A stretch of 64,000 nucleotides of DNA from a virus: positions 1-64,000 of IMG/VR virus record IMGVR_UViG_3300045988_075126; one strand, 5' to 3'. The notes beneath the pieces were generated by a model. That model was not told where the DNA came from. It saw only the letters and a program-made list of their open reading frames with translations, and searched no databases. The position numbers and the translations under genes are program-made. This document shows positions 3,868 to 61,304 of the stretch, piece after piece; the stretch's first letter is position 1, and every line of letters begins with the position of its first letter.

Positions 3868-3877
3868 AAGTCTTAGA

Positions 3878-3916
3878 GGGGTTGAATGAATTAAGTTTCA
3901 TTCACCCCTTGTTTTT
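3878..3916 (+). terminator. Rho-independent terminator
   Basis: GGGGTTGAATGAA...TTCATTCACCCC stem followed by TTGTTTTT. Confidence 0.7.
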
Positions 3917-3930
3917 AAGGAGAATAATGT

Positions 3931-5408: not shown

Positions 5409-5409
5409 T

Positions 5410-26700: not shown

Positions 26701-29700
26701 ATGGGTATGTCTAATATTGCAGCACCTTATGCTAGTTCTACTGCTAACTATCAAACGTTGAATGGTTATGTTAATCCTAATGGACAAACTGGTTGGCATC
26801 ATTATATTAATCTGTCTTATACTGATAGTAATAATACGGCAACTTCTCCTAATATGTGGCAAACTCAGTTTGCTATAAAAGCTGGCACTACTGAAGTTTA
26901 TGTCCGTTCTAGAGCTGGAGGCAAGATAAGTAATGATGCAGCTTGGGCTGCTCCTTGGGTAAGACTTGCTAGAGTTACTGACAATGTAGCATCTGCATCA
27001 AAAGTTGCTAATGCTCTTTCTTGGAGCGGTTATAGTAGTGGTTCTTATAATGGTTCTGCTGTAAAGTCTATTAGTATTCCAAATAATACTAATCAGCTTA
27101 CTAATGGAGCAGGGTTCATTACATCTTCTGCTTCAATTACTGGTAATGCTGGAAGTGCTACTAAATTACAGAATGCTAGAACTATAAACGGAACATCGTT
27201 TAATGGTACAGCCAACATAGTAACTTCTTATTGGGGAACTGCTAGAAAGCTTTGGGGTAATAGCGTGAATGGTAATGCTGATGTAAATGGCAGTATAACT
27301 ATTGCTAATACTGATGGTGTTTATGTGCAAATTGGTGATGTCAGATTAGTTTATGATAAAGCTAATACTGCCATTAAAGTAGTTAAGTCTGATGGTACAA
27401 CCGCAGCTAACTTCTATGCTACTGGTGGCATTTCTGCCTATGGAGAGGGAAGCGCTGGAACAACAGGAAGCAACAACTTCTCGGCAAAGGCGTATGCCGA
27501 TTCCATCAAGCTCACAAGCGAGAACCTTAGCGAGATTGCAAGTGCCTATTCCATCGCCGTGCTTAACAACTCGTTGAACGCTGCCATTGGTAGAATCTCC
27601 ACCTTGGAGGGTGGTAGCGCAACAAGCATTGAAACCACAGGCTCAGGCAATGCCGTAACTAGCGTGTCGAAGAGTGGAACAAAGATAACCTTCACAAAAG
27701 GCTCTACATTCTCGCTCAATGGGCATACGCACGACTTCATTACCGTGGGGGCGAATCAAACTATCACGGCTACACAATACACAAAAAGCCGTCTGAGCGT
27801 GCGCCCTTACTACAACAGCGGTGGCCCGACTACATACGGAAACATCTTGGAGGTTGTCAGCGGAAATAGCGGCGGTGGTCAGCTTGGTATGGAATGGTCG
27901 GGAAGCCAAACCAAGACGGACGGAACGGACACCAACGTAGGCAAGTTGTATTATCGTAGCAAGCGAGATAATATGGCAGGCTGGACGGTTTGGAAGAGAC
28001 TTGCCTTCGCCGAGGAGCTTGCTTGGGGCAACATCAGCGGAAAGCCTACAAGTCTCAGTGGATATGGTATCACGGACGGTGTGAACGCCGTTAGCGTAAC
28101 AGGCTCGGGCAATGCCGTGACAGCCGCATCTGTTAGTGGGCATACCTTGACCTTGACGAAGGGTAGCTCATTCAGCTTGTCTAACCATACTCACTATATA
28201 GGAACGACACAGGTACAGGGCAGCAGTGCCGAGCAAGCATTGACTGGAATAACCAAGATTGACAACATCTTGAAGTTGTCAAAGGCTAGTGTCACCGTCA
28301 ACACAAGCTACAAGGCTGAGCAGAATCGCTTGGTGATTTATGGAAGTACCTATGGCAACGATGCAAACTACATCAAGTCTGCTGGAAAGCTGTCCTATGG
28401 CGATGGCGGTCCACAATTGGTTTTCTCAACTGGCGAGAACCCAGACGCAAGTGGCGTTCAATCGGCTGCATTGGTTTATACTGACCATGGCAAGATTGGA
28501 GCAGGAGTAAGCCTTTCGTTCGTGACGAACCAAGGCGATGCCTACTTTATTGCTCCACACATCAAGGCTCTCACGGCGTTCCAAGGAAACCTTGCGTGGA
28601 GCTATATCACCAACAAGCCAACCACTTTGTCGGGATTTGGCATTACGGATGGCTTGCGCTCGGTTACTAAGCCAAGTGGAAGCAATGTGTTCGTGACTGG
28701 CATATCCACCAGTGGAACAGCCATCACCTACACCAAGAGCTACACGAAGAAGAGCCTTTCTGTGGTGGGCACTTCGGGATGGACTAACGCATCGACCGAT
28801 GGCAACATTATTCCTGACATGAGCTTCATAGCTCATTGGAACGGAGCATATAGTGGCACAAGTTCAAACCTCGCCTATTGCAACAAGGGTGCTTTCGGCT
28901 CGTTTGCCATCAAGAACAGCCTTGCCTTCTCAGAACTCACAAGCAAGCCGACAACGATAAGTGGGTATGGCATTACTGATGCTTATACGAAGTCACAGGT
29001 GGATGCCATCGCCGCAAAGTACTTGCCTTTGACAGGTGGAACGCTCACAGGTCAGCTTAAGATTGTGGCAAGCGCATTGAAAGGTGCTTACAATGGATTG
29101 CTCATTGGCGATGATTGCTACATTGGTGATTGTAACTTTGGCAACACTATCGGCTTGATGGGCGTTGGCAACAACAACGCAGGAATGGTGAAGTTCGGCA
29201 AGGGAGGTATGCAATTCGGTTACAACGGCTCGAATCACATAGCTTCGACTACCGCACAATGGATAAACCTCAATGCGGATTTGCTCGATGGTTGGCACAA
29301 AGACAACATCGTATGGTCGGGAGCGGTAAACAGCAACACCGCAAACCTTTCCCACTATTGGGCGAAGTTGTTTGACATTACCGTCACAGGCAACCAATAT
29401 GATGATAGAAGTTTCACGTTCCTCTTCTCCAACGGATATAACGATACCTATTCGGTTGTCGTGTTGAGAATCCGTCAGAATGGAGCGAATGGCTCTGGGG
29501 CATACAACTTTGGCATATCCTTGCGTGAGTTGGTTGGAAACATGTCTTCAAGGTTGCGTGTGTACTACAACAATGCAACTGGCAATGTTCAACTTTGGGG
29601 AAATTGCCAAAATAAATATGGAAGTCTGTCTTACACTATCATCAAGAAGACAGGGCGCACGTCTGCCGATTTCACAAGCCAAGGAACTTTGGTGACAAAT

Positions 29701-32256
29701 ACATCGTTCTCTGCGGCTCAAAGCTTGCCAGCAACCACAGGGGATAGTCCTTATACCTTGCTTGATGGTGCTACGAGAATTGGCATCGTGAAGCAAGCAG
29801 ACCAACTTGTAACGGCTCGCTCGCTATGGGGTCAGTCCTTCAACGGAACAGCAAACGTGAGCGGCAACATGACAGGTGTGGGCAACATCAATACTTCCGC
29901 AGCACCAGCAGGAACTATCTACACAAACAACTGGTTCAGAAGCAAGGGAAGCACTGGTTGGTATAGTGAAGACCACGGCGGTGGTTGGTACATGACCGAC
30001 AACACTTGGATTCGCAGCTTTGGTAGCAAGGATGTATACCTCTCCAACAAACTTAGCGTGAATGGTAACGTCGGCATCGGAACGGCCTCACCATCTTACA
30101 AGCTGCATGTTGTTGGCGACATCTACACAACAACCAAGGTGAACATCAACGGCATCGTCTTGGAGAAGGATTCGGACGGTAACTTGAAGGTCAACGGAAA
30201 CCTCTATGCCACAGGTGGAATAAGCGCATACGGAACTAGCTCTGCTGGAAGTGGCGGTGGATTGAGCGGTAGCGTTCTCGCATGGGACTCCGCTATCAAG
30301 ATGCCTAACGCTACGAATGGAAGTTCCGACACTACCAAGACGGAATCATCTTTCTTGGCCAGTGCTTGGTCTATAAAGCAGCTTTACAACAAGGTTACTA
30401 GCTTGGAGGGTGGCTCGGCAATGAACGTAAGCGTTAGTGGAAGCGGCAACGCCGTGACCTCTATCAGCAAGAGCGGCACTACTATCAGCGTAGTTAAGGG
30501 TAGTACGTTCCTCACGGCTCACCAAAGCCTTGCCGGTTACATGAAGACTGCGACTGCGGATGCAAAGTATATGTATCATAGCCGCAATAACATCGTGTCC
30601 GACTTGAATAACTTCGCAACAAATGGTGCTGCTCATATCTATGAAATGAACGGCGTAACTAACAAGCCGAATGATAACTCTTGGATACAGGTAATGAACT
30701 GGGGAACGGGAGATGCAAGCTATGGTTTCTTGCTTGCCAATGAATACACTGCTAATGGTCACATGTACTTCCGTCAGAAAATTGCGGGTTCGTGGAAAGA
30801 TTGGAAGACCATCATCGACTCATCAAACATCGGGTCACAGTCGGTAAATTACGCTGCATCGGCGGGTTCTGTTGCTTGGACGAACGTAAGCGGAAGACCT
30901 AGCACGATGAAAAATCCAAGTGCTCTTTCTTGGAGCGGATATTCAAGCGGAAGCTATGATGGTAGTGCAGCAAAAAGCATAAGCATTCCGAACAACACGA
31001 ACCAATTGACGAATGGAGCAGGGTTCATTACATCTTCTGCTTCAATTACTGGTAATGCTGGAAGTGCCACGAAACTCCAAACCACAAGAACGCTTTGGGG
31101 ACAAAGTTTTAATGGAACGGCTAACATAAGTGGAAGCATGACAGGTGTCGGCGACATGACCTTGGACGCAGGGGCAAGGATAAAGCACGGTTCGGGCAAC
31201 CTTTACATCGGAAACTCGGACAACTCCAACTGGATAGGTGTTCAAGACATCTGTAGCCAGTCCTCCATCGGAGATGGCAACTGGAGCTTGCGAACGAGCG
31301 GAGCTGCGCATTTCAAGGACACGACAATCAACGGAACGGCGACTATTAAGAATTTACTTAGCCTTGTTGACGGCTCGCACAAAGGCTTGAAGATGGGAAG
31401 CACGTATATCTCATCCCTCGATGGTGAAGTTATCTTGCAAGGCAACACAGCCCTCCGATTCGGAAATGATGCATGGGACCACAACCAGTGGGCGGGTCTT
31501 AAGTACGACCATAGCAGCAAGACCGTTTACCTCGGCATTGCCGATGGAAGCATATTCAAGGCGAACAGTGCCCAAAGTGGGGGTGTCATCAACCTTAAGC
31601 AAGGAATAAGCTCCGTCTATACTCCAGCATTGTACGCTGGCGGCGACATTTATCACACAGGTGCATATAGAATGCTATGGAAGAATAGCAAAGCATCAAA
31701 GTATCTGAATGTGATGAACATATCGCAGGATGATAATGGCATTCTCACCATAGGCTACGGAAACTTCTCCAACAACAAGAATGTGGTACTTGAAGGCTAT
31801 AACCTTAACTTTCGAGTTGGCAACGATAGCGGAATGAAGTCCATGTGGCTTAATTACAACAATGGCAATCCTGTGCTGAGTTTGGATGGTAATTTCTATG
31901 CCACTGGCGGTGTTACGGCTTACAAGAGTTCCGATGAACGCTTGAAGCATGACATACACGGCGTTGACAGCTTGGCTATCATCAAGGCGATGGGTGGCAC
32001 GGTTGCATTCCGATACAATGCCGACAACAAGGATAGCATCGGTTGGATTGCCCAAAGGGTTCTTCACAACACCTTCATGCAAGACCTTGTGGAGAAAGAC
32101 GACAAGGGCTTCCTCAAAATCAACTATTGGTCTCCAAAGCTGATTGCCGTTGCCTTTGGTGCTATCGAGCAAGTTGACGATGAGGTGAGCCGCTTGAAGC
32201 GAAGAGTGAGAGACTTGGAAAACGAAGTTGAACAATTAAAAAGTGATAGATTATGA
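17713..32256 (+). CDS. Giant (4,847 aa) tail-associated (Tal-like N-terminus) / tail-fibre protein with a C-terminal S74 intramolecular-chaperone domain
   Basis: Single uninterrupted ORF; the N-terminal ~250 aa resemble the prophage-tail endopeptidase/Tal region; many fibre-type repeats; C-terminus 'YKSSDERLKHDI...' is the S74 autoproteolysis motif. Confidence 0.9.
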   Translation: MKTFKEIDIKYYDNSGNVQVRCTVPVTQEASVHYELMQSHYCKLSFNLSRPTYFLRGDFIETPYGRFELIDLTKAKDNDTIGYSYEIQFDAYYRKLKNKILKYRPNTGSQESTFSLTSKISTHIEVIMKNLAYYAKLDKSYLYDPNFEGEGTDYTYVIDASVDANAAKLITYSNTSILDAIANIAQTFGCEWWFEGNILHFGTCENTNAITDFRLNDNIVSMSSSQSQSTYANRVYAFGAARNLPSGYKNDADADITKDGVVEKRLMLPNSAECSDKNKQLLAENGFELKNGYIQVSGLREDQYVEGVTTNDDIYPRNLIKTSKVTSYEKDVEDESTPEEGDYIKRTFYRVNSLAIVNEDGEKTGDMAFRKAYILSGKNLHIVFQSGSLNGMDFECEFNPDGVSEILKDDDGNPILKDGKEQINPKSQVFEIVANEDYGRFLPDITLHPKDGDTFVLYNWDSTKLGDTLVSSASNELLTDAIKDLKKSMIDPTTYTCTAEANYSYNQGRGNLHGVGDRVNLYNKGYGDSYRASRIIGYEFCLDIPYDGAKYYVGEKPSYSRLNAMESKIEELVYNGQSYLNGNGGSGRSIYIIKSYDSITPTDYNVFSAKAVDEQRLNKTKDDTAKGTITWEKVQKLLSGLLVGNFNNENGGSWTPDTEGRSHLITDYLEVRMKAIFEELVIKKTSTIGGKEIISPAGGVVAHKVEEVTVTYNNVSQKAYRCYFLAEQEGDAVDNDFSVNDQVRSESFNVRKGTYHKVGNHFYWRLVIGRDEEPVELEGKKYHYIDLSDTDCATASDVPAKGDVLSQCGNRTDVERQNCLIFSAVDTYSPFVSLYHGINSYSFANKEYVEYGVNKQTNKAFFNVYGDMYVGDRPTKENGYEGSSYIKYDSAAKQVSIKGKLSAKSTVDGKELSQYIKENSAGGLTEEQVNNLIKNSQVIADLQNQVDGAIETWFYDGVPTLKNAPASSWTTDKEKDTHLGDLYYDNKTGKAYRFAKDGNTYKWTIITDTDIAKALSDASKAQETADGKMKVFSTQPIPPYQLGDIWVNATYPTDGSIYKNEILRCQTAKAKGSSFAIADWTKASKYTDDSALNIFKEEYKNDMASYKEQLDEKVETWFYNYAPTTQNKPASDWTTDTLKSQHAGDLFYNTSNGYTYRWTGTAWARIKDNDINTAMTAASKAQDTADGKRTVFTSQPTVPYDEGDLWASGGDDGKTLMVCVKSRATGSFTSSEWVKANDSDLNAFAKTIEESLTGIRDQLDKKAETWYQPSDPSTSWTTDDAKKEHKGDLWYNTNNNQTFFWNGTKWDKQDVPTEVFDKIDGKSSIYVSKPASYEERDLWILEAAYTLGGVAYSKGELVVATKSNASFSAADWTKKVKYTDDTVANAAKKAAEEAKKAADTAQTNVTNLGKTVTSNKKAFDNYVTDGYLEPSEIAAMAQDSKRLEDAFAAAEKSYTEVKEAAVLKDTKELTDLNTAFATLTTAKTELVTYLSDISARYNAANTEKKATIVSAVGTKFTNFQSAYSAFYDKLGLANAYITSKIYGDLKQNITDLAGYKYIKDALGQTTDIDGGLVMTTLLALRDADGNVQSGINGAIDTNRGKKSIATWWGGQMVDKDYNSGSLTPATSLVRFDGSGYLANGAIWWDVDGKVHADPTSFIISEKNLGAYLAFFEPTWKSGSNGTNIKDLVALTPQAPFTTLSVSNDLLVEGKLKLGSITLSVVNGALKIDGNVYSTGGMSAYGDGTNNGGGGGLVASVKSYTDIIKGTYTDNDLASIPNAYAIKALSNRIDNISSELGGLSLDWANITGKPSTFTPSAHTHKWVDITDRITKVSQLTNDSGYTTNKGTVTSVKLTLPTGLSLGTTKEITTSGTFAISLTSGYSIPTTSKQGQWDSAYNWYKLMTTDEETADGVINKWNEVVNFLTGIAQTDTLDGILSGINNSITEEANRAKKAEGANATNIATNKANITTLQGYFTNGSAKSAIKLTNARKLWGNSFDGTADISGSIVVPSGKYITIGNIKLEYDATNKALKITNTSTNEVANLYTSGGVSAYGVGTTSSGSTGGGGLNGTVKSYNDAKSLTSESLSEVASAYSVAALYSSINDAIGRINTLEGGSATSIEVTGSGNAVTGVSKSGTKLTFTKGATFLTSHQDISGKSDKTHTHSVKINGVTKTIAATGGTAVDLGTYLTSHQSLAAYLKSADAEKTYSKLGHTHAFSEITGKPTTLAGYGVTDGVNTVTLSGSGNAVTSASIDGHTLTLTKGSTFSLSGHTHTFASLTSKPTTIAGYGITDAYTKAQVDSTIAKYLPLAGGTITGALTVNGIATFKSKVAIGDIYIINDGSGNLYVQKTDGKTAANFYATGGITAFGASSVSGGTGSGLNGSVLGFEKATAMTSADNGDSSKTEVSFLATAWSIKQLNDKINAFGTGVFSDYLTIAAAKATYQPKGSYLTSHQTIYGLTIQKNGTSLGTYTPNSAAKTINVTVPTKLSELSNDSGYTKNTGTVTSVAVSVPTGLSVSGSPITTNGTIAIALASGYSIPTTAKQTAWDGAVSAKHTHSNKSVLDGISSTKVSHWNSAYDWYALMTTDEETADGIINKWNEVVSFLANIAQTDTLSGIVDGINKSISDEVARAKKAEGVNASGISANKGSIATLQGYFTNGSAKKALQLTNARKLWGNSFNGTADINGSIIVPSGKYISIGNIKLEYDAANKALKITNTTTNEVANLYTSGGVSAYGVGTSSSSGGGLNGSVKSYSDALKLTSESLSEVASAYSIKALDSRISSLEGGSATAISVSGSGNAVTSVTKNGTTISIVKGSTFLTNHQSLDGYVNAISVSGSGNAITSVSKSGKGITFTKGATFLTSHQSLANYYTKSSVDSLLSGKSATSHTHSVKINGITKTIAASGGDAVDLGTYLTAHQSLAAYATQNWVKNEATAHNADMVDNYHASGLFTGFSISDVANKVTISIGGTSKALNLVRAFPSGVGNNFNDIATHGNSMGMSNIAAPYASSTANYQTLNGYVNPNGQTGWHHYINLSYTDSNNTATSPNMWQTQFAIKAGTTEVYVRSRAGGKISNDAAWAAPWVRLARVTDNVASASKVANALSWSGYSSGSYNGSAVKSISIPNNTNQLTNGAGFITSSASITGNAGSATKLQNARTINGTSFNGTANIVTSYWGTARKLWGNSVNGNADVNGSITIANTDGVYVQIGDVRLVYDKANTAIKVVKSDGTTAANFYATGGISAYGEGSAGTTGSNNFSAKAYADSIKLTSENLSEIASAYSIAVLNNSLNAAIGRISTLEGGSATSIETTGSGNAVTSVSKSGTKITFTKGSTFSLNGHTHDFITVGANQTITATQYTKSRLSVRPYYNSGGPTTYGNILEVVSGNSGGGQLGMEWSGSQTKTDGTDTNVGKLYYRSKRDNMAGWTVWKRLAFAEELAWGNISGKPTSLSGYGITDGVNAVSVTGSGNAVTAASVSGHTLTLTKGSSFSLSNHTHYIGTTQVQGSSAEQALTGITKIDNILKLSKASVTVNTSYKAEQNRLVIYGSTYGNDANYIKSAGKLSYGDGGPQLVFSTGENPDASGVQSAALVYTDHGKIGAGVSLSFVTNQGDAYFIAPHIKALTAFQGNLAWSYITNKPTTLSGFGITDGLRSVTKPSGSNVFVTGISTSGTAITYTKSYTKKSLSVVGTSGWTNASTDGNIIPDMSFIAHWNGAYSGTSSNLAYCNKGAFGSFAIKNSLAFSELTSKPTTISGYGITDAYTKSQVDAIAAKYLPLTGGTLTGQLKIVASALKGAYNGLLIGDDCYIGDCNFGNTIGLMGVGNNNAGMVKFGKGGMQFGYNGSNHIASTTAQWINLNADLLDGWHKDNIVWSGAVNSNTANLSHYWAKLFDITVTGNQYDDRSFTFLFSNGYNDTYSVVVLRIRQNGANGSGAYNFGISLRELVGNMSSRLRVYYNNATGNVQLWGNCQNKYGSLSYTIIKKTGRTSADFTSQGTLVTNTSFSAAQSLPATTGDSPYTLLDGATRIGIVKQADQLVTARSLWGQSFNGTANVSGNMTGVGNINTSAAPAGTIYTNNWFRSKGSTGWYSEDHGGGWYMTDNTWIRSFGSKDVYLSNKLSVNGNVGIGTASPSYKLHVVGDIYTTTKVNINGIVLEKDSDGNLKVNGNLYATGGISAYGTSSAGSGGGLSGSVLAWDSAIKMPNATNGSSDTTKTESSFLASAWSIKQLYNKVTSLEGGSAMNVSVSGSGNAVTSISKSGTTISVVKGSTFLTAHQSLAGYMKTATADAKYMYHSRNNIVSDLNNFATNGAAHIYEMNGVTNKPNDNSWIQVMNWGTGDASYGFLLANEYTANGHMYFRQKIAGSWKDWKTIIDSSNIGSQSVNYAASAGSVAWTNVSGRPSTMKNPSALSWSGYSSGSYDGSAAKSISIPNNTNQLTNGAGFITSSASITGNAGSATKLQTTRTLWGQSFNGTANISGSMTGVGDMTLDAGARIKHGSGNLYIGNSDNSNWIGVQDICSQSSIGDGNWSLRTSGAAHFKDTTINGTATIKNLLSLVDGSHKGLKMGSTYISSLDGEVILQGNTALRFGNDAWDHNQWAGLKYDHSSKTVYLGIADGSIFKANSAQSGGVINLKQGISSVYTPALYAGGDIYHTGAYRMLWKNSKASKYLNVMNISQDDNGILTIGYGNFSNNKNVVLEGYNLNFRVGNDSGMKSMWLNYNNGNPVLSLDGNFYATGGVTAYKSSDERLKHDIHGVDSLAIIKAMGGTVAFRYNADNKDSIGWIAQRVLHNTFMQDLVEKDDKGFLKINYWSPKLIAVAFGAIEQVDDEVSRLKRRVRDLENEVEQLKSDRL
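20557..21800 (+). repeat. Three tandem ~150-165-aa Trp-rich repeats inside the fibre gene
   Basis: 'ETWFY..P...WTTD....H.GDL(Y/F/W)YN...G..Y.W.G..W' seen three times. Confidence 0.75.
23206..24166 (+). repeat. Fibre module copy A1 (~320 aa)
   Basis: 'NDSGYT.N.GTVTSV...WYKLMTTDEETADGVINKWNEV...LYTSGGVSAYGVG...FLTSHQ' is highly similar to 25174-26183. Confidence 0.85.
25174..26183 (+). repeat. Fibre module copy A2 (~335 aa)
   Basis: Diverged duplicate of 23206-24166 lying ~2.0 kb downstream. Confidence 0.85.
27103..27158 (+). repeat. 56-bp exact DNA repeat, copy 1
   Basis: AATGGAGCAGGGTTCATTACATCTTCTGCTTCAATTACTGGTAATGCTGGAAGTGC, identical at 31012-31067. Confidence 0.9.
31012..31067 (+). 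repeat. 56-bp exact DNA repeat, copy 2
   Basis: Identical to 27103-27158; flanking protein sequence 'ALSWSGYSSGSY.GSA.KSISIPNNTNQLTNGAGFITSSASITGNAGSATKLQ' is also duplicated. Confidence 0.9.
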
Positions 32257-44760: not shown

Positions 44761-45528
44761 ATGGTTGCTTGTAGGGAAGAAAACAAACAAAAGAAAGAAG
44801 CTATGGGAGAAAGAAGACAAACAGAGGGCGATGAGCACAGAATCGTTGCAAAGCCAACTTATGAAGAGTTTGCAATGTATTGCTCGATGGCAGGTTTTAT
44901 GAAAGACAATCTAAAGTGGCTTTATGGTCGCTTCGATGATGTCGGATGGTTGCTACCAAGCGGTAAAGTCCCTAAGAAATGGGAGGATTTGGTCAAGAAA
45001 TGGAATTCCTTGAAGAACCCAAGCCAGACTTACCGCAAGCATGGTTTCAAGTTCAAGACCAAGGAAGAGAAGATGCACGACTGCTACGAAGTGTGGACAG
45101 ATGGTTCTGCGGTACTTAGGACTGATACCAAGCGAAGAAAGTATACTGGTGGTGCTGCCTATGTGATTTTACACGAAGGCAAGGTGTATAAGCAGGGAAA
45201 CTACGGAACTATAGACACGACAATTAGCCGTATGGAGCTTTTGGCAATCATTTGTGGTGTCGGTCATTGTCCACAGGGTGCGGCTGTGACGGTTCATAGT
45301 GATAGCCAATATGCACTTAAGACTTTGAGCGGTGTTTATTCTGCACACAAGAACTTAGACTTGATGGAGAAGTTTAGAAAGCATTCCGCTCATATAGCAC
45401 ACATCACTTGGCGCAAGGTGAAGAGTCACACAGGAGTTGAGTACAATGAGCTTTGCGACCGATTGGCGAACGAAGGTAGAATAGCTGCCGAGATAAAGGC
45501 AGGTTTAAGAGTAAATTCAAAAGCTTAG
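44761..45528 (+). CDS. RNase HI-domain protein with a ~115-aa N-terminal extension
   Basis: 'VWTDGSA', 'ISRMELLA', 'VHSDSQYA', 'HTGVEYNELCDRLA' in the DEDD order. Confidence 0.85.
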   Translation: MVACREENKQKKEAMGERRQTEGDEHRIVAKPTYEEFAMYCSMAGFMKDNLKWLYGRFDDVGWLLPSGKVPKKWEDLVKKWNSLKNPSQTYRKHGFKFKTKEEKMHDCYEVWTDGSAVLRTDTKRRKYTGGAAYVILHEGKVYKQGNYGTIDTTISRMELLAIICGVGHCPQGAAVTVHSDSQYALKTLSGVYSAHKNLDLMEKFRKHSAHIAHITWRKVKSHTGVEYNELCDRLANEGRIAAEIKAGLRVNSKA

Positions 45529-45532
45529 AGGA

Positions 45533-46582
45533 ATGAAGATACGGACATTTCAACTTTGTGCTGGGTATGACTCTCAACTGATGGCTTTAGAGCGGTTGAA
45601 AAAGAAACATTCTGATTTCGATTACGAGTGCATCGGTTGGTCGGAGATAGAGCCAAGTGCAATAGCTTTGCATAACGCTTGCTTTCCTCATCTATCCGGC
45701 AAGAACTTTGGTGACATGACAAAGATAGATTGGAGCAAGGTTGAAGACTTTGACTTGCTGACATATTCAACACCTTGCCAGTCTGTTTCGCAAGCCGGAA
45801 AGCAGGAAGGAATAGAGGAGGGAAGTAATACCCGTTCCTCTATCCTTTGGTTCACAAGAAACACCATTATTACCAGGAGACCGAAATACCTCTTAATGGA
45901 GAATGTAGAGGCTTTGGTTCAAACAAAGTTTATCGGGTTCTTCAACAAGTGGCGCAAGGAGTTGGAATCCTACGGATATGTTAACTATGCTAAGGTGGTA
46001 AATGCAGCCGACTGCGGTGTTCCTCAGAACAGAAAGCGTGTCTTCATGCTCTCTATACGAAACGATGGTGATAAGATAGATTATCATTTTCCGAGAAAGA
46101 TAAAGCTGGAGAAACACTTAGTTGATGTCTTGGAGGAAAATGTGGACGAGAAGTACTTTTTGAGCGATGCCCTGCTATGTAAAGAGAAGTTTGTGTCAAA
46201 TGAAAGGAAAGAGCCTATGAGTGCAGCTATAAGAACTCGTTCTGAGGGGAAGTGGATAAAAGGCGAAATGCATAGTCCAAAGGTCGAGCTTGGAAAGAAT
46301 ATAGCCAATACCATTACATCTGCGAGCAAGGACTCCTTGGTTGTGCTTGGAGAGACAAGGTTGCGCATTAGGCGTTTGACTCCGAGAGAACTCTTCCGCT
46401 TAATGAACGTTGACGAAGAATACATAGACAAGATGCTTGAAAGTGGAGTGTCGAAGTCAAGTCTTCAAAAGGCTGCTGGAAATTCGATTGTCGTAGCTTG
46501 CATGGAGAGAATATTCAAGGAACTTTGGTTTTCTGAGAGTAATGTTAAGGTCGCTGATGATGGTCAGCTATGTCTATTTTAA
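45533..46582 (+). CDS. dcm: DNA (cytosine-5)-methyltransferase
   Basis: Motif I 'FQLCAGYDS', IV 'STPCQSVSQAG', VI 'LMENVEAL', VIII 'QNRKRVF', X 'AAGNSIVV'. Confidence 0.92.
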   Translation: MKIRTFQLCAGYDSQLMALERLKKKHSDFDYECIGWSEIEPSAIALHNACFPHLSGKNFGDMTKIDWSKVEDFDLLTYSTPCQSVSQAGKQEGIEEGSNTRSSILWFTRNTIITRRPKYLLMENVEALVQTKFIGFFNKWRKELESYGYVNYAKVVNAADCGVPQNRKRVFMLSIRNDGDKIDYHFPRKIKLEKHLVDVLEENVDEKYFLSDALLCKEKFVSNERKEPMSAAIRTRSEGKWIKGEMHSPKVELGKNIANTITSASKDSLVVLGETRLRIRRLTPRELFRLMNVDEEYIDKMLESGVSKSSLQKAAGNSIVVACMERIFKELWFSESNVKVADDGQLCLF

Positions 46583-48500: not shown

Positions 48501-49748
48501 ATGATTTACGTAAGGAACAAGGAAGGTAAGGCATTGATGCCAAGCGAGCGTGGAGCGAGGATAGGTTATCTTCTTCGCCATGGTAAGGCTCATGTTGTCA
48601 GCCGTGTTCCGTTTATCGTTCAGTTGGATTATGAGAGCACCACCTATACGCAGGAAGTGAGCCTTGGCATTGATGCTGGCTCAAAGCACATAGGCGTTTC
48701 GGCTAGTTCCGAGAAGAAGGAGCTGCTTGCAGCGCAGGTTGAGTTAAGAAGTGATGTTGTGAACTTGCTTTCTGCTCGCAGGGAGTTGAGACGGACAAGG
48801 CGAAACCGCAAGACACGTTACCGCAAGGTTCGTTTTGATAACCGCAAGAAGAAAGATGGTTGGCTTGCACCCAGTATTGAGCAAAAGGTTGAGAGCCACT
48901 TGAAGGTTATCCGCTTGGTTCATAAGTTACTTCCAATTACGAAGACCACTATTGAGGTTGCTCAGTTCGATGCTCAGAAAATCAAGAATACCGACATCAA
49001 GGGTGAGGAGTATCAGCAGGGCGAACAGATGGGCTTTTGGAATGTTAGGGAGTACGTCTTGGCAAGGGATGGGCACAAGTGCATTCACTGCAAGGGTAAG
49101 AGCAAAGACCCTATCTTGAATGTTCACCATTTGGAGAGCCGCAAGACTGGTAGCAATTCCCCAAGCAATCTCGTAACGCTTTGCGAGACCTGCCACAAGG
49201 CTTACCATCGTGGAGAGTTCGACTTGAAAGTCAAGCGTGGCACTACTTTGCGTGATGCTGCGGTGATGAACATTATGCGTTGGGCGGTCTATGAGCGAGC
49301 GAAGGCAGAGTTTGGGAATGTTCACTTGACTTATGGTTACATAACTAAGCACACTCGCATAGAGAATGGTATTGCTAAGAGCCATGCAGCCGATGCTTTC
49401 TGTATTGCCAAGAACGTAAATGCAATGCGGTTGGAATTCTTCTTCATGTGCCGTTGTGTTCCCCGTCATACGAGAGCCTTGCATGTAGCGAATCCAAAGA
49501 AAGGTGGCATCCGCAGAAGCACGATAGCCTCTCATAAGATAGGTAAGTCTCGCTTCCAGCGTTTCGACATGGTGCGGTGGATGGGCGAGGAATGCTTTAT
49601 CTTTGGCAGCACGCATGGTAATGTTGTTTTGCGTAAAATTGATGGTGTAAAGGTGCATGAAACGCAAGCTGTGAACATCAAGACGATAAAGTTTTTGAGG
49701 AGATTGAGAAATAATATTTTAGTTAAAGAAATAGTTTTTATAAGTTGA
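48501..49748 (+). CDS. iscB: IscB RNA-guided nuclease (PLMP domain, split RuvC with inserted HNH)
   Basis: 'EGKALMP' (PLMP), 'LGIDAGSKHIG' (RuvC-I), Arg-rich bridge 'RRELRRTRRNRKTRYRK', 'IEVAQFD' (RuvC-II), 'CIHCKG...NVHHLESR...NLVTLCETCHKAYH' (HNH), 'KSHAADAFCIA' (RuvC-III). Confidence 0.9.
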   Translation: MIYVRNKEGKALMPSERGARIGYLLRHGKAHVVSRVPFIVQLDYESTTYTQEVSLGIDAGSKHIGVSASSEKKELLAAQVELRSDVVNLLSARRELRRTRRNRKTRYRKVRFDNRKKKDGWLAPSIEQKVESHLKVIRLVHKLLPITKTTIEVAQFDAQKIKNTDIKGEEYQQGEQMGFWNVREYVLARDGHKCIHCKGKSKDPILNVHHLESRKTGSNSPSNLVTLCETCHKAYHRGEFDLKVKRGTTLRDAAVMNIMRWAVYERAKAEFGNVHLTYGYITKHTRIENGIAKSHAADAFCIAKNVNAMRLEFFFMCRCVPRHTRALHVANPKKGGIRRSTIASHKIGKSRFQRFDMVRWMGEECFIFGSTHGNVVLRKIDGVKVHETQAVNIKTIKFLRRLRNNILVKEIVFIS

Positions 49749-51894: not shown

Positions 51895-52151
51895 TGAAGA
51901 TTGAACCAAGTGAGTTCTTGCCGATAGGTAATGAGTTTCAGAAAATCTTCGGTGTAAGCTTTGGAAAGTTCATTGATATGCGGTTTCTTTTGGCAAGAAA
52001 AGAGCTGGTCTTCAACTTGCTGAAGTTCACAGACTGGCTTGAAGAACGTTATCCGGATGAGTGTTCCATTGATGGAGTGAGTTACAATGCGGTTGTCGGG
52101 CGAAAGTTTGGCAAGCGAGGTGTTAAAATGATTAAGAAGTTGATAGGATGA
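51894..52151 (+). CDS. Hypothetical protein (85 aa)
   Basis: ATG overlaps the upstream stop. Confidence 0.6.
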   Translation: MKIEPSEFLPIGNEFQKIFGVSFGKFIDMRFLLARKELVFNLLKFTDWLEERYPDECSIDGVSYNAVVGRKFGKRGVKMIKKLIG

Positions 52152-52873
52152 AGTACATGGGTAGTAAGGCTAGAATCGTGCATGAGATATTGCCGATTAT
52201 GCTGGACAAAGAACATGATACGTTTGTTGACGCTTTCTGTGGTGGATGTAGTGTTATTGAAAATGTGCCGGACACGTATCGCAGGATTGCCAACGATAAG
52301 AATAGGTATCTTATCGAAATGTGGAAGTATCTTCAGAATGATGGGTTTGTCTTCAACCATATTAGCAAGACGTTGTATAACTTTGCACGAGACTGTTATC
52401 ATGGAAAGAATAATTACTTCACAGAAGCAGGTGTCGGACTAATTGGCTTTATGGCGAGCTTTAATGGTCGTTTCTTTGATGGTGGCTATAGCGGACATAA
52501 TGTGGTCGGCAAGAACGGAAAGGTAAGAGATTACATAAGGGAGCAGATAGAAAACACAATGCGTGATGTGCCTCTTCTCAAAGGTGTTGAGTTCTATAGC
52601 GGCAGTTATGATGAACTTGTGATACCGGATAGGAGTATAGTGTATTGCGATTTGCCTTACAAAGCTACGAAAAAGTATGATGTATCAAAGAATTTCGATT
52701 ACGAAAGATTCTATATATGGTGCATGGAAATGGCTAGAAGAGGTCATAAGGTCTTTATCAGCGAGTACCAGATGCCCCAAGAGTTCAGATGTGTTTGGGA
52801 AAAGGAAGTAACCAATTCCCTTAACCCGAATATCACAAAGAGACCAGTCGAAAGGTTGTTTACAATTGATTAG
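52148..52873 (+). CDS. dam: DNA N6-adenine methyltransferase (D12/Dam class)
   Basis: 'YMGSKARIVHEILPIM', 'FVDAFCGGCSV' (SAM site), 'YCDLPY' (DPPY-type catalytic motif). Confidence 0.88.
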   Translation: MKYMGSKARIVHEILPIMLDKEHDTFVDAFCGGCSVIENVPDTYRRIANDKNRYLIEMWKYLQNDGFVFNHISKTLYNFARDCYHGKNNYFTEAGVGLIGFMASFNGRFFDGGYSGHNVVGKNGKVRDYIREQIENTMRDVPLLKGVEFYSGSYDELVIPDRSIVYCDLPYKATKKYDVSKNFDYERFYIWCMEMARRGHKVFISEYQMPQEFRCVWEKEVTNSLNPNITKRPVERLFTID

Positions 52874-57288: not shown

Positions 57289-57657
57289 ATGGTACAGAAA
57301 TATATAGTTGGTGATGTTGTCATGTACAACAACAAAATCATGGTTGTCAAAGAACCAAGAGACGGAAGCCACTTTGACTTATCTTGCCACAAAGAAGGAT
57401 TGGTGTACTGCTTTGTTGGTGTTGATGAAATAAAGCCAGTGCTTCTTACAGCTGCCATTCTTCTTAAGAATGGATGGAGTAAGGGACAAATATACTTTAG
57501 GCATAGTCGTATTCCAAGAATTAAACTTTGCACAGACGGCGGTATTAGTTGGTCTGTTTCAATAAATAATGATATTATGGGAGGGTATATCAGTTACGTC
57601 CACGAGTTACAGCATATCCTATTTGCTTTTAAAATCACATCAGAAATGGAGGTGTAG
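57289..57657 (+). CDS. Hypothetical protein (122 aa)
   Basis: Compact same-strand ORF. Confidence 0.65.
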   Translation: MVQKYIVGDVVMYNNKIMVVKEPRDGSHFDLSCHKEGLVYCFVGVDEIKPVLLTAAILLKNGWSKGQIYFRHSRIPRIKLCTDGGISWSVSINNDIMGGYISYVHELQHILFAFKITSEMEV

Positions 57658-57659
57658 GT

Positions 57660-57806
57660 ATGAAAGTAATATTTATAATAGGTATAGTCTTGATTATATT
57701 TGGAGTGTACTTGTTCTTGAAAGATTTTGCATATATGCTCCAAGGAGTCATACTTATGATATTAGGAGCAGGTATATTAGGCATCAGCTTGTCTTATATC
57801 GTTTAA
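57660..57806 (+). CDS. Small two-TM membrane protein (48 aa)
   Basis: 'VIFIIGIVLIIFGVYLF' and 'VILMILGAGILGISL'. Confidence 0.45.
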   Translation: MKVIFIIGIVLIIFGVYLFLKDFAYMLQGVILMILGAGILGISLSYIV

Positions 57807-57839
57807 TGTTTAACGCCTTCTGGCACAAATTGATTGATT

Positions 57840-58109
57840 ATGATTTTAAATTGTATTACAGCTATTATTATTGTGGCGATTGTTTGTACCACCATTGTCG
57901 TTAACTGCTATATCAGCAAGAAGACTGCTGATTATAAGGCGACATTAAAAAAGCGCAAGGAATTTATGTCCGATATTGGTTATTATATTAATAGAATCAA
58001 TAAGAATTTTGAGCGTATAGACGTAGAGAAAAGTGCAAGGGAGCAAATAGGCTCTGACTTGCATTTTGTCAGAGATTATATCTATAAGTATTGTGATGAG
58101 ATAGATTAA
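57840..58109 (+). CDS. N-terminal TM protein (89 aa)
   Basis: The track start is TTG; ATG at 57840; 'ILNCITAIIIVAIVCTTIVV'. Confidence 0.55.
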   Translation: MILNCITAIIIVAIVCTTIVVNCYISKKTADYKATLKKRKEFMSDIGYYINRINKNFERIDVEKSAREQIGSDLHFVRDYIYKYCDEID

Positions 58110-58137
58110 CCGCCTTTAGGCATAAATAAATAGTAAT

Positions 58138-58323
58138 ATGAAAGCAAGTGAGTTGATAGAGCATTTAAAATCTTACATTGATTTTACAGGTGGAGATTGT
58201 GAAATGCTTGTATTTGATAAAGCAGAAGGTGTTTCTTGTGGTATCGAGAATACTTCTACGGATGGTGATTATGTGTTTCTGCACATTTCATCCGATAAAT
58301 ACACAACAAAGATACCTGAGTAA
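58138..58323 (+). CDS. Hypothetical protein (61 aa)
   Basis: Compact same-strand ORF. Confidence 0.55.
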   Translation: MKASELIEHLKSYIDFTGGDCEMLVFDKAEGVSCGIENTSTDGDYVFLHISSDKYTTKIPE

Positions 58324-58357
58324 TTACCATCCCTTATGGGATATAAATATAAGAAAT

Positions 58358-59140
58358 ATGAAGGAATTAAGAAAGAAAACATTTAAAAATGGTGTCGTGT
58401 ATTGTCTTCAGTTAGAAGATGGTTTTCTAGTTGAAACTACAGATACATTCTTGCCTTATTACACTAAAGATGCAATAGGCAGACATCAGAATAAGCTCGA
58501 CAACAATGAGCTTGGCGACCGCATGGAACGTTGGATGATAGGAGTATCTACAATGAGTGGATGTCCAGTAAGATGCAAGTTCTGTGCTACAGGCAACATG
58601 AAACGTTATCGCAATCTTACAGCAGAAGAAATCGTTGAACAGGTTGAATTTGCCATCAACAAGGCAGGTGCTGACCCAAGCAAAGCAAAAGAGTTTAAGA
58701 TAAACTATACTCGTATGGGCGAGCCATTCCTTAATATTGATGCAGTCAAAGAGGCTATTCGTGTTATTACTGAGAAATATCCTAATACCCATCATTACGT
58801 ATCAACGATTGGTATCAAGGGGAGTGATTTTTCTTTCATTAAGGGAAATATTACGTTACAGATTAGTTTGCATTCATTTGATGATAACAAGCGTAATTGG
58901 TTGATTCCTTACAAGAACAAAATGACTATTCAAGAGTTAGGTCAGATACGGACACAAAGCAATCTGAAAACAACAATCAACCTCACTCTTGTTGATACAT
59001 CTGATTTCGATGCGAAAAAGTTGGCTGAGTGGTTTGATAAGGAACATTTCTTTGTGAAGTTGTCTCCTATCAATGTGAATAACATATCAGAAAAGAATCA
59101 TCTTGGAACTGGTGTAGTAGAAGGAATTAATTTAGTATGA
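58358..59140 (+). CDS. RlmN/Cfr-family radical-SAM enzyme, N-terminal ~260-aa fragment lacking the C-terminal catalytic Cys loop
   Basis: 'GVSTMSGCPVRCKFCATGNMKRYRNLTAEEIVEQV', 'RMGEPFLN', 'LQISLHS', 'KLSPIN' follow the RlmN/Cfr motif order; the track ORF start at 58178 is not used. Confidence 0.8.
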   Translation: MKELRKKTFKNGVVYCLQLEDGFLVETTDTFLPYYTKDAIGRHQNKLDNNELGDRMERWMIGVSTMSGCPVRCKFCATGNMKRYRNLTAEEIVEQVEFAINKAGADPSKAKEFKINYTRMGEPFLNIDAVKEAIRVITEKYPNTHHYVSTIGIKGSDFSFIKGNITLQISLHSFDDNKRNWLIPYKNKMTIQELGQIRTQSNLKTTINLTLVDTSDFDAKKLAEWFDKEHFFVKLSPINVNNISEKNHLGTGVVEGINLV

Positions 59141-59904
59141 AAAAGGGAATTTTTAGATACAGGATTATCACGAATCTGAATTGCAACATGAATGAAAGCA
59201 CAGGAGTAAACGGAAATTGTTACTTCTGTTACCAAAAGTTCAAGTCACCGTTGCGCTTGGATAGTGATAAGATGGAGGAAACATTGAAGAAGGTTGGTGT
59301 TCTGAAAAGAGCAACTATCATGGGAGGCGAAAGCTTGCTCAATCCAGATTTGGTAAAGATTGTAAAGATAGTCAGCAACTATACATCTGATGGTATCTGT
59401 CTTGTTACAAATGGAATACTGCTTAATGAGGACATCATCGTTGCATTGAAAGATGCCGGATTAACTGAGGTTGCTATCAGCGTGTCTTCTATCGAACAAT
59501 ACGAAAGACGTAGAGACATGGCACTTCTGTGTAAGGAGATTATTCCAAACACAAGAATAAACATTCCTAAGTGCAAGGAAAGTTTGAATCCACAACTACT
59601 GGAAACAATACTATCAGATAGTTTCTATAGCATTGTATGCGAAGATTTACAGGCAAGGTATGGTGAGATAAGACTCCCAGATGGTTCTGTAAAGGTTGGT
59701 GATGACGGATATGGATTTTATGATTACAAGTGGAATGGCCATACGTTTGGAGTATTTGGCAATTATGGGAAGTACAACAGAAGCGATATTATCATAACTC
59801 CTCTTGGAAATTTCTGTGATTGGGAAAAGTATTGCAAGGCCGTTAAGAACAATGAACTTGTCAGAAGAAACAATCATATTGATGATGACAAAATTGTGCA
59901 TTGA
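59137..59904 (+). CDS. Second radical-SAM protein with an expanded CX11CX2C cluster motif
   Basis: 'NLNCNMNESTGVNGNCYFCY', 'IMGGESLLNP'; ATGA overlap with the upstream gene. Confidence 0.7.
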   Translation: MKKGIFRYRIITNLNCNMNESTGVNGNCYFCYQKFKSPLRLDSDKMEETLKKVGVLKRATIMGGESLLNPDLVKIVKIVSNYTSDGICLVTNGILLNEDIIVALKDAGLTEVAISVSSIEQYERRRDMALLCKEIIPNTRINIPKCKESLNPQLLETILSDSFYSIVCEDLQARYGEIRLPDGSVKVGDDGYGFYDYKWNGHTFGVFGNYGKYNRSDIIITPLGNFCDWEKYCKAVKNNELVRRNNHIDDDKIVH

Positions 59905-60325
59905 TTTCGGAAGTGGCTATAATCCAAAGGCTGGATATAAAACTTGCGATGTAAAAACCTTTCCACAATTGGATTTTCAGTATGATGGGAAAGATGAGAT
60001 TGTCGGTCTTAGAGAAAAATCAGTAGATGTATTTTATCTAAGAAACGTTGTTCATCATATCCCAGATTTACAGAGAACTTTTACAACCTTGAAGAAGTAT
60101 CTGAAGGTAGGTGGGAAGCTAGTTATCATTGATTGCAATAAAGGTCATTATAAGACAAATGTATTTCTTGACAATTTATGGTATAGATTTGTTGGCAATA
60201 ACAACGAAATCTTTATCAGTAAACAGTATAGAGATTACATTAACGTTTTGAAAAAGTTAGGTTTTAAGCAATTATATTATAAATCATTTAAAGAAAAGGA
60301 GATTACTAAGTATGAATGCAATTAA
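59852..60325 (+). CDS. Class I SAM-dependent methyltransferase
   Basis: 'CIDFGSGYNP' (motif I), 'DVFYLRNVVHHI', 'LKVGGKLVIID'; start uncertain (59852 or 59882). Confidence 0.75.
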   Translation: MNLSEETIILMMTKLCIDFGSGYNPKAGYKTCDVKTFPQLDFQYDGKDEIVGLREKSVDVFYLRNVVHHIPDLQRTFTTLKKYLKVGGKLVIIDCNKGHYKTNVFLDNLWYRFVGNNNEIFISKQYRDYINVLKKLGFKQLYYKSFKEKEITKYECN

Positions 60326-60431
60326 GAATCAATTGGAAAAGATGGGCTACGATTATGCAGTAGCAATCGCAACAAAGGCTGAAATTGAGAATGGAGCTGC
60401 TTGTGGCCAGCTCGCTATTATTTGTGAGTAA
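60312..60431 (+). CDS. 39-aa ORF corresponding to the C-terminal strand plus 'AACGQL' catalytic-cysteine loop of RlmN/Cfr
   Basis: 'MNAIKNQLEKMGYDYAVAIATKAEIENGAACGQLAIICE' versus the recalled E. coli RlmN '...[32 protein letters not shown]'. Confidence 0.6.
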   Translation: MNAIKNQLEKMGYDYAVAIATKAEIENGAACGQLAIICE

Positions 60432-60483
60432 GTAATTAACCACCCTCTCCTTGGCAACAGGGAGAGGGTAAAAAGAAGAAAAT

Positions 60484-60792
60484 ATGGCAGACATGGAATT
60501 TGGAAAATGTGATATTTGTGGCAAAGAAGCTGCTTTATCACGTACATATTTCAAATATAGAATAGGTAGTTGTGAGTGTTGTGAAAGCAAATTGCGTGAT
60601 GGCTCAAAAGGTCATTTTGAGGTTGTGCATCATTGCAATAAATGCGTTCCTCATTTACCTACAGTTATTCATCCTTTATTTAAGGCTTTAGATGGTAAAG
60701 TTTACAGAGCAAATGTTACTAACGTTTTACCATTTGAAATTGAAGGTAAATACATTATCGAAGAACCAGTAATCAAGGAGGATAAGCAATGA
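60484..60792 (+). CDS. Cys-rich (zinc-ribbon-like) protein (102 aa)
   Basis: 'CDIC...CECC...HHCNKC'. Confidence 0.65.
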   Translation: MADMEFGKCDICGKEAALSRTYFKYRIGSCECCESKLRDGSKGHFEVVHHCNKCVPHLPTVIHPLFKALDGKVYRANVTNVLPFEIEGKYIIEEPVIKEDKQ

Positions 60793-61304
60793 GCAAAATG
60801 AACGTTAAGGAGTCACTTCTAGATGTTGTTAAAAGCAACAACCTAGAGATACTCAAAATAGATTTATTTAACGATTTTGAGTTGTTCGTAAGAGAAGGCA
60901 CTAGGGAACGTAATGAGTATTGCAAGACTTATACAACATTAGACGATTTGGATTTTGAGGTAGAGGCTTACTTGCTGAATGATGAAGTACGTGGAATTGT
61001 ATACTGCCAAGATAAAGACACAAAAGAACCTGTGTGGATTGAACCTTGGAGTGATGAATGCTGTTCTTGGTGGCAGGTTAGCAGAGTCCCAAAGTTCTAC
61101 AAACGAAATACTTTAAATGAAGTAAAGTTATTATTAATCAGTGCTAGAAACAGGTTTCGTAGTGCTATTGATGGTGTGATGATACCTCCTGATGAGAGAT
61201 ATAGAGAAAAGTCAAAAGCATTTGAGGAACTTGAAAAAGCACTTGAAGAGTTGGAAAACGAAACTATGTGGGTAAGCAAGCCCGATAAGGAGGACAAGGT
61301 ATGA
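60789..61304 (+). CDS. Hypothetical protein (171 aa)
   Basis: 4-nt overlaps on both sides. Confidence 0.65.
   Translation: MSKMNVKESLLDVVKSNNLEILKIDLFNDFELFVREGTRERNEYCKTYTTLDDLDFEVEAYLLNDEVRGIVYCQDKDTKEPVWIEPWSDECCSWWQVSRVPKFYKRNTLNEVKLLLISARNRFRSAIDGVMIPPDERYREKSKAFEELEKALEELENETMWVSKPDKEDKV

Follow-up and report, generated by a model that had tools for sequence, protein, structure and literature searches.

RlmN and Cfr (PDB 3RFA, 5HR7, 6FZ6, and 9P0P) are class A radical S-adenosylmethionine (SAM) methylases, and their products are m2A2503 or m8A2503 in 23S rRNA and m2A37 in tRNA. To our knowledge, they are the only class A radical SAM methylases that have been characterized so far. Residues 1 to about 60 of RlmN form an RNA-binding N-terminal helical domain, and the mechanism of RlmN and Cfr relies on two cysteines of one polypeptide. 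One of these cysteines (C355 in RlmN or C338 in Cfr) is methylated by one SAM; a 5'-deoxyadenosyl radical takes a hydrogen from the methylcysteine, and the methylene radical adds to C2 or C8 of adenine (PMC9692996). The other cysteine (C118 or C105) is indispensable in resolving the cross-link between protein and RNA, and the C118A variant traps the covalent adduct (PMC9692996). Phage enzymes can be encoded in pieces: in Aeromonas phage Aeh1, nrdA is split in two by the homing endonuclease gene mobE, and the products reassemble into an active reductase (PMC3045599; genes in pieces of T4-like phages are reviewed in PMC2988022). Here, we describe a phage locus that appears to encode an RlmN/Cfr-like enzyme in two pieces. 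It lies in a stretch of 64,000 nucleotides (nt) of viral DNA (IMG/VR record IMGVR_UViG_3300045988_075126, positions 1 to 64,000), which we call the window. The locus has four genes (A to D), and we think that A and D probably each encode a subunit of a single RlmN/Cfr-like radical SAM enzyme (class A).

The features of the locus are:

Gene A, 58358..59140, + strand: RlmN/Cfr-like radical SAM core of 260 amino acids (aa), with cluster cysteines C69, C73, and C76, and with Gly62 at the position of RlmN Cys118

Gene B, 59137..59904, + strand: 255-aa radical SAM protein with the cluster motif C16-x11-C28-x2-C31; an optional accessory, between A and D

Gene C, 59882..60325, + strand: 147-aa minimal class I SAM-dependent methyltransferase with an IDFGSG motif (phrog_5399)

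Gene D, 60312..60431, + strand: 39-aa mini-protein that corresponds to the last helix, the last beta-strand, and the 'AACGQL' loop of RlmN, with Cys31 at the position of Cys355

Hairpin, 60442..60469, + strand: G+C-rich, 12-bp stem, 10 nt past the stop codon of D (-23.1 kcal/mol, z = -6.3)

Gene A contains the motifs GCPVRCKFC (residues 68-76), MGEPFLN, ISLHS, and KLSPIN, in that order, and it ends about 30 residues short of the catalytic cysteine loop. (An original prediction from the sequence alone had described A in this way.) Its best profile matches are to RlmN (TIGR00048, E = 1.3e-22, profile positions 103-300 of 355) and then to models of Cfr, and it also matches Radical_SAM from Pfam (E = 3e-11). 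Since the match covers only positions 103-300 of 355, A lacks both the N-terminal domain and the C-terminal cysteine loop. The 56 residues that precede the profile match are predicted to form three beta-strands and one helix, with no N-terminal helical RNA-binding domain. In structure comparisons with Foldseek, the template-modeling (TM) score is lower when normalized by the target (0.60) than when normalized by the query (0.71), consistent with an extra domain of RlmN that has no counterpart in the query. As had also been predicted, the position of RlmN Cys118, seven residues ahead of the first cluster cysteine, is a glycine: Gly62 aligns to it with no gaps up to the cluster motif (both against the C118A structure, 4pl1, and against the cysteine in 6fz6). 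This position is glycine (alanine in one member) in 11 aligned members of the split family, while the cysteine is invariant in 16 unsplit relatives.

The part that A lacks seems to be provided by D (MNAIKNQLEKMGYDYAVAIATKAEIENGAACGQLAIICE). When the window is translated in all six frames, the motif [AGS]ACGQ[LMV] turns up a single time, and 0 of 300 shuffles contain it. The original prediction matched this short open reading frame (ORF) to the last strand and cysteine loop of RlmN, and several lines of evidence agree. First, D aligns with roughly residues 323-363 of E. coli RlmN. If A and D are joined, they are collinear from end to end with structures of RlmN (6fz6, 4pl1, 5hr6, and 3rf9), through AACGQLA, and no residues are lost at the junction. 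Second, A alone hits RlmN/Cfr models in profile searches, and appending D to A raises the scores of seven RlmN/Cfr models from NCBIfam by 4-10 bits. With D appended, all seven alignments reach the C-terminal part of the profile, and five of the seven come within 3-13 positions of its end (for instance, 337 of 338 or 342 of 355). As a control, shuffled or reversed D gives no gain in score. Third, in a profile-profile comparison, the D family matches columns 294-330 (of 351) of a profile of 16 unsplit relatives (probability 92%, E = 6e-7), and the cysteine of D falls on the invariant cysteine of those relatives. The automatic annotation from IMG also labels the 39-aa protein as RlmN.

We aligned 26 D sequences, taken from a set of 53 distinct D proteins, and the cysteine is the same in all 26. 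In full, the invariant residues are A20, T21, E24, A30, C31, G32, and Q33. The strand region AIAT.AE is within the best-conserved part of D, which is what we would expect of a docking element. The original prediction pointed out a second cysteine in D ('IICE'), which is indeed present in the window but is not conserved: relatives have IITD, IIAE, IIGE, or IISE instead. It is therefore no general substitute for Cys118, and we rejected it as a replacement.

We also modeled A joined to D with AlphaFold2. The model has a mean predicted local distance difference test score (pLDDT) of 92.4 and a predicted TM score of 0.91. The helix, strand, and loop of D have pLDDT of 81-91, and the only weak stretch is the junction (pLDDT 63). 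The top matches of the model in Foldseek are RlmN (6fz6, 4pl1, 3rfa, and 5hr6; TM 0.70-0.71) and then Cfr (9p0p).

The original prediction dealt with this locus alone, but the split is not peculiar to it and is found across the family. We found 2,212 homologs of A in databases, nearly all of which are 260-262 aa long with the same truncation point. Representatives at 37-64% identity end at the same place as A does and have glycine, or rarely alanine, at the Cys118 position. We counted 93 distinct split-type A genes that are followed by 2 kb or more of sequence; 88 of these have the D motif on the same strand and within 2.5 kb, and one of the five apparent exceptions carries a D with CSQ replacing CGQ. 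(Our alignment-based search of viral contigs for similar loci gave close relatives only; we found the distant ones with single-protein queries.) The A/D pair is also found outside of the Crassvirales, in Moorella phage MTATph1, Pectobacterium phage Arno18 (Ounavirinae), and Vibrio phage D479. The split is the ancestral state of a large family of phage genes, and in most members A and D are adjacent with nothing in the gap. For instance, in Kehishuvirus tikkala, a 43-aa D begins 2 nt after the homolog of A.

Both genes are under purifying selection, which is strong for D. The median ratio of nonsynonymous to synonymous substitution rates (dN/dS) for the core of D is 0.06, and D is more conserved than A (62-75% identity for D where A is 41-47% identical). 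The identical 39-aa D protein is present on at least 1,000 public contigs. Among loci with adjacent A and D, the spacers range from 2 to 21 nt, D can be in any of the three frames relative to A, each of the three stop codons is used, and some D genes are preceded by a Shine-Dalgarno sequence. These features imply that D is its own cistron.

The two halves in the window are separated by 1.17 kb and do not share a reading frame, so they might be non-functional or might be rejoined by some means. Overall, we consider this to be extremely improbable, and we rejected each form of it. An assembly artifact or a pseudogene is at odds with a truncation that is common to 2,212 homologs, with the dN/dS of D, and with exact copies of D on so many contigs. 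Stop-codon recoding, readthrough, and frameshifting do not fit with the variety of frames and stop codons at the junction or with D genes that have their own Shine-Dalgarno sequence. As for an intron or ribozyme, positions 57500-61000 have no match in Rfam (at E up to 1), except for a chance hit of a microRNA family to the hairpin. There is no room for a split intein, as every residue of D and of the tail of A aligns to RlmN. Another candidate was the HNH domain in a homolog of A (P0004), which might have been a junction endonuclease, but it is an upstream gene that is fused at the N-terminus, not at the split.

Based on the evidence from profiles, profile-profile comparison, natural fusions (described below), synteny, and selection, the sequences support D as the detached C-terminal cysteine-loop module of an RlmN/Cfr-like enzyme, which would work with A as a separate polypeptide. 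Several observations weigh against this view of A and D. No curated cutoff is reached: for TIGR00048, A scores 80.2 bits and A joined to D scores 87.9 bits, versus a cutoff of 290; the Cfr models give 52-66 bits, versus cutoffs of 468-550; and overall, the 80-88 bits for A compare to curated RlmN/Cfr cutoffs of 290-633. A profile of 26 D sequences, used by itself, did not find any RlmN chains in PDB (hmmsearch, E up to 10), which is a weak test given such a short query. The alignment for the AlphaFold2 model of A joined to D was built from A-only homologs and unsplit relatives; the D region is informed solely by the unsplit sequences, so the model is based on homology and does not count as independent support for assembly. 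(From a single sequence, AlphaFold2 gave an uninformative model with pLDDT of 37.) At one locus (L162), A is accompanied by B and C, but we detected no D within 4 kb. There are no tRNA genes in the 64-kb window, so they give no hint as to the substrate. Finally, the resolving cysteine is absent and no other non-cluster cysteine is conserved in A or D, so the canonical catalytic cycle of RlmN cannot be completed as described (PMC9692996).

The system can also be lost in natural populations. Three close relatives (L011, L041, and L073) are deletion variants that are missing D along with the 3' end of A or B. As a separate observation, in Kehishuvirus tikkala (L001, 3426-4643), an SPFH/band-7 gene lies two genes upstream of A. 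Two RlmN-like matches, from Stenotrophomonas phage BUCTxx99 and Xanthomonas phage JGB6 (H12 and H15), are annotated as 'prohibitin family protein', which might reflect an association or a mis-annotation.

Natural rearrangements show that D behaves as a module. In P0125, which is encoded on two contigs (L190/L191, Logan DRR595525/6, 44-991), D is fused to the N-terminus of A via a linker, which is a circular permutation. (Downstream of the fusion are a radical SAM gene of a third type, which encodes 239 aa and is related to phrog_17662, and a 51-aa ORF that is rich in Cys, Trp, and His.) At two other loci (L217 and L229), D precedes A as a gene of its own. In Vibrio phage D479 (L186, OZ195776), the 93-aa ORF after A (3800-4081) contains two complete D modules in tandem (...AGAACGQMAILDE... 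occurs twice).

An ORF of about 40 aa that stands alone beside one or two radical SAM genes and a methyltransferase could also be a ribosomal precursor peptide. A (plus B and C where present) would then be maturases, and the end product would be a modified peptide (S-methylated or cross-linked, for example) rather than a nucleic acid. The tandem modules in D479 do resemble a multi-core precursor, and the cassettes in the A/D gap of some relatives (L080 and L173, with a radical SAM protein and proteins with Cys-rich tails) or near the fusion (L190, with a radical SAM protein and the 51-aa Cys/Trp-rich ORF) are in keeping with this reading. But the entire D protein is homologous to and collinear with the helix, strand, and loop of RlmN, and A is truncated exactly where D starts. 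The conserved AIAT.AE strand region fits a docking element, and D is fused to A in P0125. Nor did we see leader or cleavage features in D, or a protease or an exporter beside the locus. We therefore view a precursor peptide as unlikely.

If A and D are instead subunits of one enzyme, as we prefer, then its mechanism might be as follows. A would supply the barrel that holds the [4Fe-4S] cluster and SAM. D, translated from its own start codon, would dock on A as the absent C-terminal helix and beta-strand, and the docking would place the invariant cysteine of D (in the GAACGQL loop) into the active site. By analogy with RlmN and Cfr, this cysteine would be S-methylated by one SAM. The 5'-deoxyadenosyl radical from a second SAM would turn the methyl group into a thiomethylene radical, which would attack the substrate; the most plausible target is a purine of RNA or DNA, at an sp2 carbon. 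The original prediction suggested host rRNA or tRNA, or phage DNA, as possible targets. B (the radical SAM protein) and C (the SAM methyltransferase) would be an optional tailoring or accessory pair that is translationally coupled to A and D in one operon. Given the glycine at the Cys118 position and the lack of the N-terminal RNA-binding domain, both the resolution step and the substrate must differ from those of canonical RlmN and Cfr. In particular, with no other conserved non-cluster cysteine, resolution proceeds differently or does not occur, and without the RNA-binding domain, the substrate need not be A2503 or A37.

If resolution does not occur, then D might be a consumable co-substrate. 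The link would never be broken, and the product would be a 4-kDa peptide that is bridged by a methylene group to a nucleic acid base or another target. A would then be a peptide-to-nucleic-acid (or peptide-to-metabolite) ligase that uses S-methylated D as a methylene donor and leaves D bound covalently to an adenine, either in the host's rRNA or tRNA or in DNA. In this scenario, the detachment of the cysteine loop would be what makes the chemistry catalytic, as A could turn over many times, and the adduct could be a mechanism of phage takeover or protection. The glycine (rarely alanine) at the Cys118 position in the aligned split-family members and the adduct that is trapped in the C118A variant of RlmN (PMC9692996) are consistent with this idea, and a separate, highly conserved gene that is tandemly duplicated in D479 would fit with a stoichiometric need for D.

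To see how Cys118 is distributed, we looked at a rough neighbor-joining tree. The split family forms one clade, and the neighboring clades include unsplit proteins that lack Cys118 but retain the cysteine loop: the 'SNCGQ' clade (with Ile or Val at the position) and P0186/P0197 (with Thr). Both cysteines are kept in canonical RlmN and Cfr and in a phage clade with 'CC...GGGCGQLW'. If the link were never broken, then the unsplit proteins without Cys118 would be single-turnover suicide enzymes, and so would the D-A fusion. Since such unsplit proteins form whole clades, resolution that is independent of Cys118 probably exists. The adduct itself is suggested by analogy. We consider it doubtful that D is consumed, and similarly doubtful that A is a ligase.

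There is another neighboring clade of RlmN-like proteins ('KIGVS…', around 260-280 aa; P0176, P0192, P0198, P0202, P0204, P0211, P0219, P0220, P0229, P0235, P0247, and P0250). These proteins have glycine at the Cys118 position, and they end just past the last strand, without any cysteine loop. Our scan of viral contigs did not find any relatives of this clade.

Returning to the two-subunit enzyme, we considered what B and C contribute. The DNA between A and D consists of two coupled genes, as originally predicted: the four genes are densely packed in the order A-B-C-D on the + strand (58358-60431), the stop codon of A and the start codon of B overlap as ATGA, and C shares 23 nt with the end of B and 14 nt with the start of D (the stop codon of C is at 60323-60325). 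C had been identified as a class I SAM methyltransferase, which we agree with, but its true start is the ATG at 59882. C generally goes together with B.

B belongs to a small, unnamed family (98 clusters). Its similarity to viperin/MoaA-type enzymes is limited to the N-terminal 100 residues or so: residues 10-120 (approximately) match MoaA (E = 1e-13), viperin (E = 1e-10), and pVip (E = 4e-13), and residues 16-117 match viperins in PDB, with all scores far below the cutoffs. Similarity to viperin or MoaA over the full length, including the substrate-binding C-terminal half, was not found. Besides the cluster cysteines, B has three invariant cysteines (C88, C168, and C233), which could bind a second cluster. 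The CX11CX2C motif that was noted for B is there in the window (59182-59229), but the relatives in L072, L079, and L189 have CX5CX2C and the relative in L187 has the canonical CX3CX2C, so the motif in the window is a lineage-specific loop insertion.

The overlaps couple all four genes tightly in the window, and the original prediction was that the products of the four genes form one machine, assembled in trans. The pairing of A and D as separate polypeptides holds up, but B and C are optional. It is true that the order A-B-C-D is seen again in lineages with just 43-64% identity in B (L187, L189, L200-L213, L218, L219, and L231), and among the loci we searched, we never found B-C away from A. 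But among loci L162-L246, A-D without B and C is more common (45 loci) than A-B-C-D (20 loci); the other arrangements are D-A (4 loci), A-D-C (3 loci), and A-B-C (1 locus). B-C is absent from L075, where A is 96% identical to that of the window, and from all of the cultured phages that are not crAss-like, and in L079, B-C is downstream of D. (Unsplit relatives exist as well.) The prevalence of A-D alone and the displaced B-C in L079 imply that A and D can do without B and C, while B and C may depend on A and D. An obligate C-methylating machine with four components is thus an improbable reading. Since nothing separates A from D in most members of the split family, B-C is not obligatory; judging from these arrangements, it looks like an optional but recurrent accessory pair that depends on A/D, and not the reverse.

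Other genes can occupy the gap. In L168, a gene for a 271-aa homing endonuclease of the GIY-YIG type lies exactly between A and D (4792-5607; phrog_314, E = 6e-25; GIY-YIG phrog_5123, E = 2e-8), which makes the gap a place where mobile genes land. Such an insertion may also be how the gene was split in the first place. In the window, there is no homing endonuclease at the split (B and C are not nucleases), and the gap is empty in most relatives. Small ORFs are found in the gap in L167 and in Arno18. In L080 (6556-7773) and L173 (4327-5884), the gap contains one or two proteins of around 112-116 aa with Cys-rich C-terminal tails, followed by a different radical SAM protein (288-290 aa) with a canonical CX3CX2C motif. 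The small proteins have no match in PHROG, and at most there is a sub-threshold match of one of them to DUF4085 from Pfam. The cassette looks like a phage-borne relative of the systems for ribosomally synthesized and post-translationally modified peptides. In L187 (1731-4194), which is a distant instance of A-B-C-D, the genes directly upstream encode a NUDIX hydrolase and a nicotinamide phosphoribosyltransferase, which are a phage pair for salvaging nicotinamide adenine dinucleotide.

The locus had been placed in a phage, and we concur: the window is DNA from a crAss-like phage, as indicated by a 4,847-aa ORF and by genes for RNase H, DNA methyltransferases, and HNH proteins. Within the phage collection, the closest named relative of gene A is from Kehishuvirus sp. 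'tikkala' (Crassvirales). A nearly identical A-B-C-D block is present in the isolate assembly of Segatella copri HF1825 (L192, NZ_JANDWX010000006.1, a contig of 135,577 bp), with 96% identity for A, 98% for B, and 100% for D. Also, the representative of the protein cluster for gene C is a RefSeq protein from S. copri (WP_118253205.1). Together, these point to S. copri as the host or carrier of the phage.

Elsewhere in the window, the 4,847-aa protein is encoded by a single ORF (17713-32256, + strand) with a G+C content of 0.47-0.49, versus 0.35-0.39 in other parts. Its first 1,000 residues have no match in Pfam. It is probably a giant virion-associated protein or an RNA polymerase that is typical of crAss-like phages. 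Upstream of the locus are two DNA methyltransferase genes (45533-46582 and 52148-52873), an HNH endonuclease gene (48501-49748), and an RNase H gene (44761-45528), along with several ORFs of 200-300 aa that have no match in PHROG. Past the end of D, the hairpin at 60442-60469 may be an operon-end or RNA-stability element. It is not followed by a T tract, and a simple terminator scan makes no call there.

If we are right about A and D, then they form a class A radical SAM methylase with a detached cysteine-loop subunit and without the resolving cysteine, which we believe to be the probable reading. In the literature that we searched, we did not find a description of a split RlmN or Cfr, in line with the original prediction, or of the A/D family of phages. 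The family is large, and it spans diverse groups of phages, including the crAss-like phages that are so abundant in the human gut. It offers natural experiments on how a methylcysteine loop is delivered to an active site, on whether a cross-link can be resolved without Cys118, and on what phages target with methylation by radical chemistry. These ideas are directly testable in cultured carriers: Kehishuvirus tikkala (which grows on Bacteroides cellulosilyticus), Arno18, MTATph1, and D479. There is also a lesson for annotation, as pipelines overlook the mini-ORF of D, call it 'hypothetical', or label both fragments as 'RlmN'.

How do A and D compare to known systems? They share with RlmN and Cfr the fold, the CX3CX2C cluster motif, the GEP, S/T, and SxH motifs, and a C-terminal module (helix, strand, and 'AACGQL' loop) with the cysteine that carries the methyl group (C355, or C338 in Cfr). 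But in the A/D system, the module is a separate protein of about 40 aa, the resolving cysteine (C118, or C105 in Cfr) is a glycine, and there is no N-terminal RNA-binding domain. A/D is also encoded by phages, and it scores far below the cutoffs for either family. Phages encode unsplit relatives as well, which are around 300 aa. One of these, from Stenotrophomonas phage ANB28 (XMQ95057.1, annotated as RlmN; 319 aa; L185, PQ434692, 2977-3936), is 35% identical to A and also lacks the N-terminal domain, but it is a single chain that retains both Cys118 ('TVICCSTQSGC') and the cysteine loop ('GGGCGQLW'). Its gene is clustered with phage tRNA genes (Ile, Pro, Leu, Thr, and Ser), and this neighborhood suggests that the ANB28-type sister family modifies the phage's tRNAs.

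A small protein that provides a catalytic module in trans is known from another enzyme. GrcA (YfiD) is a 'spare part' for pyruvate formate-lyase: it supplies the C-terminal module that bears the radical. GrcA has an unrelated fold and chemistry (a glycyl radical), and it repairs a damaged full-length enzyme, whereas the large subunit A never carries the module.

The closest known phenomenon to the A/D split is the genes-in-pieces ribonucleotide reductase of Aeh1 (PMC3045599). In both cases, one enzyme is encoded by two collinear cistrons, although for A/D the assembly is predicted from sequence. A and D together match the product of a single-gene homolog, and both cistrons are under selection. 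Also, in both cases, the gap can host mobile genes (in the case of A/D, the GIY-YIG-type endonuclease in L168). Unlike the split in nrdA, the A/D split is ancient and is found across unrelated groups of phages, and the gap is mostly empty. The cargo in the window is a radical SAM gene and a methyltransferase gene, not an endonuclease. And in A/D, the small piece is only about 40 aa yet holds the catalytic residue, and the order of the pieces can be permuted.

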